A stretch of 64,000 nucleotides of DNA from assembly GCA_042584825.1 (NCBI GenBank), contig JBHOSK010000001.1, forward strand, positions 1,777 to 65,776, given 5' to 3'. A model generated the notes under the pieces. That model had not been told where the DNA came from. It saw only the letters and a program-made list of their open reading frames with translations, and made no database searches. Both the position numbers and the translations under genes were made by a program. Numbering within the stretch: position 1 is the stretch's first letter; the number at the start of each line of letters is the position of its first letter. Origin of the DNA: Candidatus Aenigmatarchaeota archaeon (GTDB taxonomy: Archaea; Aenigmatarchaeota; Aenigmatarchaeia; GW2011-AR5). This document shows positions 62,805 through 63,133 of the stretch, one piece after another.

Positions 62805-63133
62805 GTGACCTGTCAAGCAACTTCGTTCCTTAATTGGGATGAGGAAGTTCTGTCCACCTAGTCAAAATAGTGTATCAAACATACACTGTCTTGAAGAATG
62901 TAGTACTGGATGGTATACAGCCGAGAGGTTGTCTCTGGGAACAGAAACGATACCAGCCATGAGCGGAACAGTGAAGCTCATCTTGATTCTGCCTTGTGCA
63001 GAATCGTCTGGATGAAACGGCCCAGAATGCATAGGTGCAAGCATGAGCGCTAAGACAAATGTTGCACACCCGCGTTGATGAAAAGCCCAAAGGGCTTGGA
63101 ACGGGTAACAAAAGACAGACTACGACAGGTCAC
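62805..63133 (+). ncRNA. rnpB: Structured ~330-nt RNA, most likely RNase P RNA (SRP RNA not excluded)
   Basis: Perfect 10-bp terminal helix (gtgacctgtc / gacaggtcac) followed by TTTTTT; a P3-like hairpin, then aggaagttctgtccacc resembling CR-I (AGGAAAGUCCGGGCUCC); near the 3' end acaaaagacagacta resembling CR-V (ACAGAAnCCGGCUUA), with compensatory pairing tctgtc/gacaga as P4; gatgaaacgg...ggtgcaagcatgagcgc resembles CR-IV; local GC far above the surroundings; no credible ORF. Confidence 0.45.

Follow-up and report, generated by a model that had tools for sequence, protein, structure and literature searches.

An archaeal RNase P RNA gene of Aenigmatarchaeota below the Rfam cut-off, with a reduced P15, an additional J5/7 hairpin and a putative kink-turn in P19

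The segment at positions 62805–63133 (+ strand) of the window, as we call the whole stretch of 64,000 nucleotides that was analysed, is almost certainly the gene for the archaeal RNase P RNA, the catalytic subunit of the RNase P of this member of the Aenigmatarchaeota (DPANN). The phylum agrees with the best protein matches of a gene in the window, which are to MAGs of Candidatus Aenigmatarchaeota with 60–66% identity. RNase P RNA is the ribozyme that trims tRNA precursors. An Rfam scan of the window at curated gathering thresholds returned the 16S and 23S rRNAs and four tRNAs and gave no report at 62805–63133. A permissive Rfam scan of 62600–63400 yielded a match to RF00373 with 75.3 bits (E = 6.7e-21), which spans the full length of the model (positions 1–288) and covers exactly 62805–63133 (+), corresponding to a gene of 329 nt for which the full canonical structure could be drawn. 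The second-best Rfam matches in this region had E values of at least 0.1, and those to CRISPR-DR17, TD-2, SAM-II, sR60 and sR4 in the flanks (E 0.1–9) were rejected as chance matches to hairpins. Calculated per genome, the RF00373 match had an E value of 1.8e-21, and no other match was found in the assembly (887 kb, 41 contigs, 65.7% complete). The initial annotation had proposed an RNase P RNA at this place from the sequence alone, and this reading was borne out with boundaries that agree to the base. Its description of the segment likewise proved accurate in most respects. The GC content is 0.45–0.51 inside the segment versus 0.28–0.34 in the flanks, the terminal 10-mers GTGACCTGTC (62805–62814) and GACAGGTCAC (63124–63133) are perfectly complementary, and a TTTTTT run follows at 63134–63139. 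The segment had also been called free of ORFs, which is not strictly the case, since five mechanical ORFs of 30–78 aa on both strands overlap it; however, none belongs to a convincing Pfam family, the best E value for the four largest being 0.08. Elsewhere in the window, a weak Rfam tRNA at 20594–20663 (33.2 bits) is absent from the ARAGORN output and overlaps the start of an ORF (20617–21495), and a tRNA-Leu(GAG) predicted by ARAGORN at 47078–47163 is not listed by Rfam at the gathering score.

The gathering cut-off that defines membership in RF00373 is 84 bits, and the locus thus scores below it. A score under this threshold had been named beforehand as an outcome that would speak against RNase P RNA; the shortfall is real, but it comes with a full-length and highly significant match. 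Among 61 relatives, RF00373 gave a significant match in 40 and reached the cut-off in only 5, and orthologues were identified in 130 of the 151 genomes of the phylum. Three relatives (G017, G024 and G035) carry the CR-I signature GAGGAARYTCTGYCCAC but have no RF00373 match at E≤0.01. With at least three such genomes, some RNase P RNAs of this family escape the model completely. We attribute the low score at the present locus to lineage-specific insertions and the deletion of P15–P17 (J5/7 hairpin, reduced P15 and P19) and not to missing homology. Seven RNase P RNA loci of same-family relatives (L014, L020–L023, L026 and L028) have large insertions of 60–150 nt in the P2/P3 region and a branched two-hairpin P19 with A/U-rich stems (UUUUCUUUU...AAAAGAAAA); these RNAs are up to ~510 nt long, and their Rfam scores go down to 28–49 bits. 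We concluded that the gene is a genuine, ordinary housekeeping gene missed by standard annotation, which belongs to a known family and has a variant architecture typical of its lineage.

Upstream of the gene, a TATA box, TTTAATAA, is located at 62776–62783 (+) and ends 21 nt before the RNA 5' end, with a purine-rich BRE-like stretch just upstream. In most of 30 relatives, the motif aaatcTTTATTAAtcc precedes the orthologous RNA at an identical spacing, as is characteristic of an archaeal TATA/BRE promoter. The T6 run at 63134–63139 (+) is a likely archaeal oligo-T terminator, and T-rich runs are also found after many orthologues. The neighbouring genes are unrelated and comprise an HTH regulator and an ORF of unknown family upstream and a small ORF followed by Sec61-beta (63405–63569) downstream. 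The small ORF (63150–63359, 69 aa, no Pfam family) starts right after the terminator and contains, close to its N-terminal end, KKCDVCKK with a spacing of the Cys-X2-Cys type. A perfect 10-bp inverted repeat, AAGTTTTCGG-caa-CCGAAAACTT, at 62755–62777 is placed between the TATA box and the upstream ORF, whose stop codon is at 62747–62749. This repeat overlaps the BRE-like stretch and may serve as a regulatory element or form a hairpin at the 3' end of the upstream gene. The weak Rfam matches to TD-2 (E 1.3 and 8.7) fall on this hairpin and look like chance.

The folding z-score of the segment against shuffles was -6.6 (62805–63133, single strand). Manual folding, one of the checks that had been suggested, produced the core helices and the P4 pseudoknot, and all helices as well as CR-I to CR-V could be drawn without mismatch, the conserved regions following each other in the right order (GAGGAAGUUCUGUCC, ACAGAAACGAUAC, GAUGAAACGG, CUAAGACAAAUG and ACAAAAGACAGACUAC). 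All features are on the + strand, and RNA positions are converted to window coordinates by adding 62804. In the drawn structure, P1 consists of 10 bp between 62805–62814 and 63124–63133 (RNA 1–10/320–329) and covaries in relatives. P2 pairs GCAAC at 62817–62821 with GUUGC at 63061–63065 (RNA 13–17/257–261), and relatives have covarying versions such as GCGACC/GGUCGC, AUGACC/GGUCAU, GAAUA/UAUUC and CUUGAC/GUCAAG. The RF00373 alignment, the drawn structure and RNAalifold place P3 at 62822–62843 (RNA 18–39), which located the P3-like hairpin mentioned in the initial annotation. CR-I, GAGGAAGUUCUGUCC, at 62841–62855 includes the P4 5' strand (62846–62848 and 62850–62854 around a bulged U at 62849), and CR-V, ACAAAAGACAGACUAC, at 63108–63123 (RNA 304–319) includes the P4 3' strand (63114–63121); P4 thus corresponds to RNA 42–44 and 46–50/310–317 with a bulged U45. 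Both regions had been picked out correctly as CR-I-like and CR-V-like.

Following CR-I, the P5 5' strand CACC at 62855–62858 pairs with GGUG at 63034–63037 (RNA 51–54/230–233), and an additional 13-bp hairpin with a subsequent A-rich linker occupies J5/7 at 62862–62894, a 38-nt insertion relative to RF00373. The cruciform is composed of P7 (5' strand 62898–62902, RNA 94–98/224–228), P8 (62903–62916, RNA 99–112), which is also found in relatives, P9 with a GAGA loop (62917–62932, RNA 113–128) and P10/11 (5' strand 62934–62939, RNA 130–135/217–222), with compensatory changes indicated by RNAalifold for both P9 and P10/11. The automated search for P7 was noisy and picked P5.1 in the window, so that both P7 and P8 were placed manually by comparison with relatives. 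CR-II, ACAGAAACGAUAC, at 62941–62953 (RNA 137–149) is nearly invariant in relatives. P12 at 62953–63011 (RNA 149–207) branches into P12a (62959–62981) and P12b (62985–63005). CR-III, GAUGAAACGG, follows at 63011–63020 (RNA 207–216), as placed by the RF00373 alignment and relatives; the string gatgaaacgg had been labelled CR-IV in the initial annotation but is CR-III. The 3' strands of P10/11 (63021–63026), P7 (63028–63032) and P5 (63034–63037) lie together at 63021–63037 in the drawn structure and the RNAalifold set. They are followed by a vestigial P15, GC-AUGA-GC, with 2 bp at 63041–63048 (RNA 237–244), and by the true CR-IV (J15/2), CUAAGACAAAUG, at 63050–63061 (RNA 246–257). The CR-II/CR-III module reads the tRNA elbow. 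P12a is capped by a K-loop-like element, G-GA-ACAGU-GA-A, and relatives have stem-UGA-N4-6-UGAU-stem or a K-turn at this position. K-turns in P12 are known L7Ae sites (PMC5499556). Taken together, sequence and covariation show that the RNA folds into the universal RNase P core, namely P1-P2-P3, the P4 pseudoknot, P5, the P7–P10 cruciform and the CR-II/CR-III module.

Covariation was assessed in a collection of orthologues from 60 relatives and 150 genomes of the phylum. The P4 strands AGU(U)CUGUC and GACAGACU form 8 Watson-Crick pairs around the single bulged U (62849). In a gap-free alignment with the Rfam archaeal consensus, five of these eight pairs differ on both sides and still pair, which bears out the co-variation of the P4 strands claimed in the initial annotation. 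Over 50 distinct CR-I/CR-V combinations, 99.75% of the P4 cells are canonical; column shuffling gave a mean of 85%, and none of 2000 shuffles reached the observed value. Two or three pair types occur at six of the eight pairs, with switches among GC/AU/GU, CG/UA/UG and the like in relatives, while the bulged U is invariant in the 50 distinct orthologues. This bulged U positions the catalytic Mg2+. RNAalifold on 16 full-length orthologues independently recovered P1, P3, P4, P5, P9, P10/11 and P15, with compensatory changes at 33 of 41 pairs, and covariation supports the core helices P1, P2, P3, P5, P7, P9 and P10/11. CR-I of the phylum reads GGAAG(C/U)UC, as opposed to the usual prokaryotic GGAAAGUC (P4 5' strand, window 62845–62850), so that G-C takes the place of A-U at the second P4 pair, and C-G or U-A that of G-C at the third. 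We take this version of CR-I to resemble that of eukaryotic nuclear RNase P RNA.

The P15–P17 block is shortened from 41 nt in the Rfam model to 4 nt, and L15, P16, P17 and P6 are absent. In relatives, P15 has 2–4 bp and covaries; the 2-bp P15 of the present RNA may not form at all. Without L15, P16, P17 and P6, base-pairing with a 3'-CCA is not possible. The tRNA genes in the window have no encoded 3'-CCA, which fits the loss of the CCA-binding loop L15. By analogy with type M RNAs, the RNA should be strongly dependent on proteins. A hairpin at the J5/7 position was found in about 22 of 30 order-level relatives, several with GNRA loops, and is followed by an A-rich linker. No complement of the loop of this hairpin was obvious by eye among the other loops of the window RNA. 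The position is the same as that of P5.1 in bacterial type B RNAs. In Bacilli, P5.1 accompanied the loss of P6; in archaea, deletions are as a rule not accompanied by such additional segments (PMC12974513). The archaeal J5/7 hairpin is most likely a gain independent of P5.1 of type B.

A second insertion relative to RF00373 (37 nt) forms a helix at 63068–63106 (+) in J2/4, between the 3' strands of P2 and P4. It consists of a basal stem (63068–63072/63102–63106) and a distal hairpin (63083–63097), and the basal stem occurs in all 30 relatives with many different complementary sequences. The position between P2 and P4 defines P19, which has already been described for type B bacteria, for eukaryotes and for 'various clades' of archaea (PMC6565675, PMC12974513). 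Thus, the helix itself is not new. As a MAFFT alignment of the P19 region gave inconsistent registers for the basal stem and split the hairpin of the window, structure-anchored scripts were used instead. Across the families of the phylum (numbered f1, f2 and so on), the internal-loop pattern described below occurs in at least one genome of f1, f2, f6–f9, f13, f15, f21 and f25–f27 and in 2 of the 19 sequences of f18; P19 is a plain helix in f16, f17, f22 and f24 and is absent in f14, f20, f29, f31 and most of f18.

Between the two stems of P19 in the window, the 5' strand U-GAU-GA-A and the 3' strand G-GA-A flank the distal hairpin. They can be arranged as a kink-turn with U63076 at -1b, GAU (63077–63079) at L1–L3, G.A pairs between 63080–63081 and 63099–63100, A63082.G63098 as 3b.3n and A63101 at -1n (+ strand). 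A box C/D-like register, which uses the first GA of UGAUGA, was rejected as it misfits the 3' strand, whereas the GA next to the distal hairpin fits. The loop could instead be no L7Ae-bound kink-turn at all, and represent a protein-free motif (a pK-turn or docking element), a site for a different subunit or a merely fortuitous likeness to the hammerhead core, a reading to which we assign an appreciable probability, clearly below even. It draws on an extra bulge of 2–3 nt that interrupts the C helix in the order of the window, by which the loop becomes larger than a standard K-turn and the K-turn is not a textbook one, on several families with P19 but without tandem G.A pairs, and on the protein-free pK-turn used by bacterial RNase P (PMC5499556). 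The string CUGAUGA-stem-GAA also equals the hammerhead core (CUGAUGA...GAAA); however, it lacks stem I and a cleavage site, and there was no hammerhead match at E≤10, so that this variant was rejected. The pattern X-NNN-GA-(3b)-stem...stem-(3n)-GA-Y was searched in 100 RNase P RNAs of the phylum and gave 33 candidates, 32 of them distinct. In the register with a 3-nt bulge, X-Y (-1b.-1n) is canonical in 31 of these 32 (UA 13, CG 8, AU 5, GC 3, UG 2), compared to only 7–20 of 32 in the seven neighbouring registers. The 3b.3n pair is mostly non-Watson-Crick (A.G 12 and U.U 5 among the 32), and family f21 has a textbook K-turn, GCGGA-AAU-GA-stem-GA-UCCGC. As judged from this comparison of sequences, the pattern is well supported and is what a genuine K-turn with a bulge of 3 nt should show. 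Moreover, the genome encodes L7Ae, a known K-turn-binding subunit of RNase P (PMC5499556, PMC6565675). In archaeal RNase P RNA, binding of L7Ae has been documented for P12 (KT2/KT3) and P16-17 (KT1) (PMC5499556), and no report connecting P19 with a K-turn was found in the literature searched. We consider it rather probable that L7Ae binds P19, which would thus make up for the L7Ae site that the catalytic domain lost together with P16-17.

Two further readings concern the identity of the gene as a whole. The initial annotation had offered SRP (7S) RNA as the alternative, on account of a short resemblance of gaaacggcccaga to an SRP-like string. This string is CR-III together with the P10/11 3' strand of RNase P RNA, SRP families including RF01857 gave no match in 62600–63400 even at E≤10, and the SRP RNA of this genome is encoded on another contig (contig 2, G000:C2:33458-33728) with 118.1 bits, above the cut-off; the chance that the segment is SRP RNA is negligible. 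A decayed, non-functional copy of an RNase P RNA gene would account for the sub-threshold score, for the reduction of P15 to 2 bp and for the insertions in J5/7 and J2/4. We regard a pseudogene as highly improbable nonetheless, as the assembly holds no other copy, all universally conserved regions are intact and so is P4 with its bulged U, conservation extends to promoter and terminator, and the same 'defects' are common to dozens of related genomes, where they covary and most of the RNAs also score below the cut-off. A functional RNase P RNA of variant architecture is the reading we follow here.

Genes for the protein partners Pop5, Rpp30, Rpp21 and L7Ae were identified in the assembly that contains the RNA gene. 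The search for Rpp29 gave no match there, at an assembly completeness of 65.7%; as Rpp29 is present in 36 of 40 relatives, its absence here most likely results from assembly incompleteness. [quoted passage not shown] The gene would be transcribed on its own from the TATA/BRE promoter, with the transcript ending at the oligo-T run, and, based on family knowledge, the RNA would assemble with Pop5, Rpp30, Rpp21, Rpp29 and L7Ae to remove the 5' leader of pre-tRNAs. The lost parts would probably be compensated by the J5/7 hairpin, the P12a K-loop and P19 with its kink-turn, and the latter probably recruits L7Ae to the catalytic domain. An artificial P19 turns the Methanocaldococcus jannaschii enzyme from a dimer into a monomer (PMC6565675), and on this analogy the natural holoenzyme is predicted to be monomeric here.

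For genome annotation, the result fills a gap for an essential gene and indicates that RNase P RNAs of an entire DPANN order are under-called by the archaeal Rfam model, since the cut-off is reached in only 5 of 61 genomes, and at least three others show the CR-I signature but yield no match. With a model specific to this lineage, the annotations and completeness estimates of many MAGs would be corrected. The RNA also represents a natural experiment in RNase P remodelling, in which the CCA-binding module was lost, a J5/7 hairpin was gained and a putative P19 kink-turn is present; of its parts, only this kink-turn and the P5.1-like hairpin are likely to be of specialist interest. If L7Ae binds P19, this would be the third location of L7Ae on RNase P RNA, after P12 and P16-17, and would bear on the evolution of the protein-rich eukaryotic RNase P and on the question whether archaeal RNase P must be dimeric. 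Tentatively, and with slightly less than even confidence, we propose a distinct Aenigmatarchaeota class of RNase P in which the P19 kink-turn replaces the lost KT1, a P5.1-like hairpin stands in for the P6 bridge and the enzyme is a monomer because P19 blocks the dimer. If true, the P5.1-like hairpin in place of the lost P6 bridge would be a case of convergence with bacterial type B, the holoenzyme would be monomeric as in eukaryotes, and eukaryotic RNase P, with its protein-covered P19, would have an archaeal precedent in the protein-bound P19.

Compared to type A archaeal RNase P RNAs, such as that of Pyrococcus furiosus, the RNA shares P1–P5, the bulged-U P4 pseudoknot, the P7-P8-P9-P10 cruciform, CR-I to CR-V, a K-turn-type element in P12 and the same protein partners, and with its P8 the specificity domain is type A-like. 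It differs in that L15, P16, P17 and P6 are absent, and with them the KT1 site, that P15 has 2 bp, that a J5/7 hairpin and a P19 with a putative K-turn are added, and that P4 is AU-rich and has both bases altered in 5 of its 8 pairs. With type M RNAs (M. jannaschii, Methanococcus maripaludis), it has in common the loss of everything distal to P15, the lack of a CCA-binding loop, the expected dependence on proteins and a K-turn-type element in P12, which binds L7Ae in type M RNAs (PMC5499556, PMC6565675). However, type M RNAs lack P8, which is kept here (62903–62916), so that the likeness is confined to the loss of P16/P17/P6. The RNase P RNA of M. jannaschii has no P19 and works as a dimer (PMC6565675). 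Since an artificial P19 makes it monomeric, the natural P19-bearing RNA described here should not form that dimer.

With bacterial type B RNAs (Bacillus, Geobacillus), the RNA shares the combination of P6/P16/P17 loss with a hairpin between P5 and P7 (P5.1) and P19 (PMC12974513). Domains and protein sets are different, and P10.1, P15.1 and P18 are missing here. The RNAs of eukaryotic nuclear RNase P and RNase MRP likewise have a helix inserted between P2 and P4. To our knowledge, no K-turn has been reported in the eukaryotic P19; Rpp38, the eukaryotic homologue of L7Ae, binds P12, and we know of no archaeal counterpart of Rpp40. The eukaryotic P19 serves as a protein-contact surface, with human Rpp40 contacting P1, P2 and P19 (PMC8509007), and does not allow a dimer of the archaeal kind (PMC6565675).
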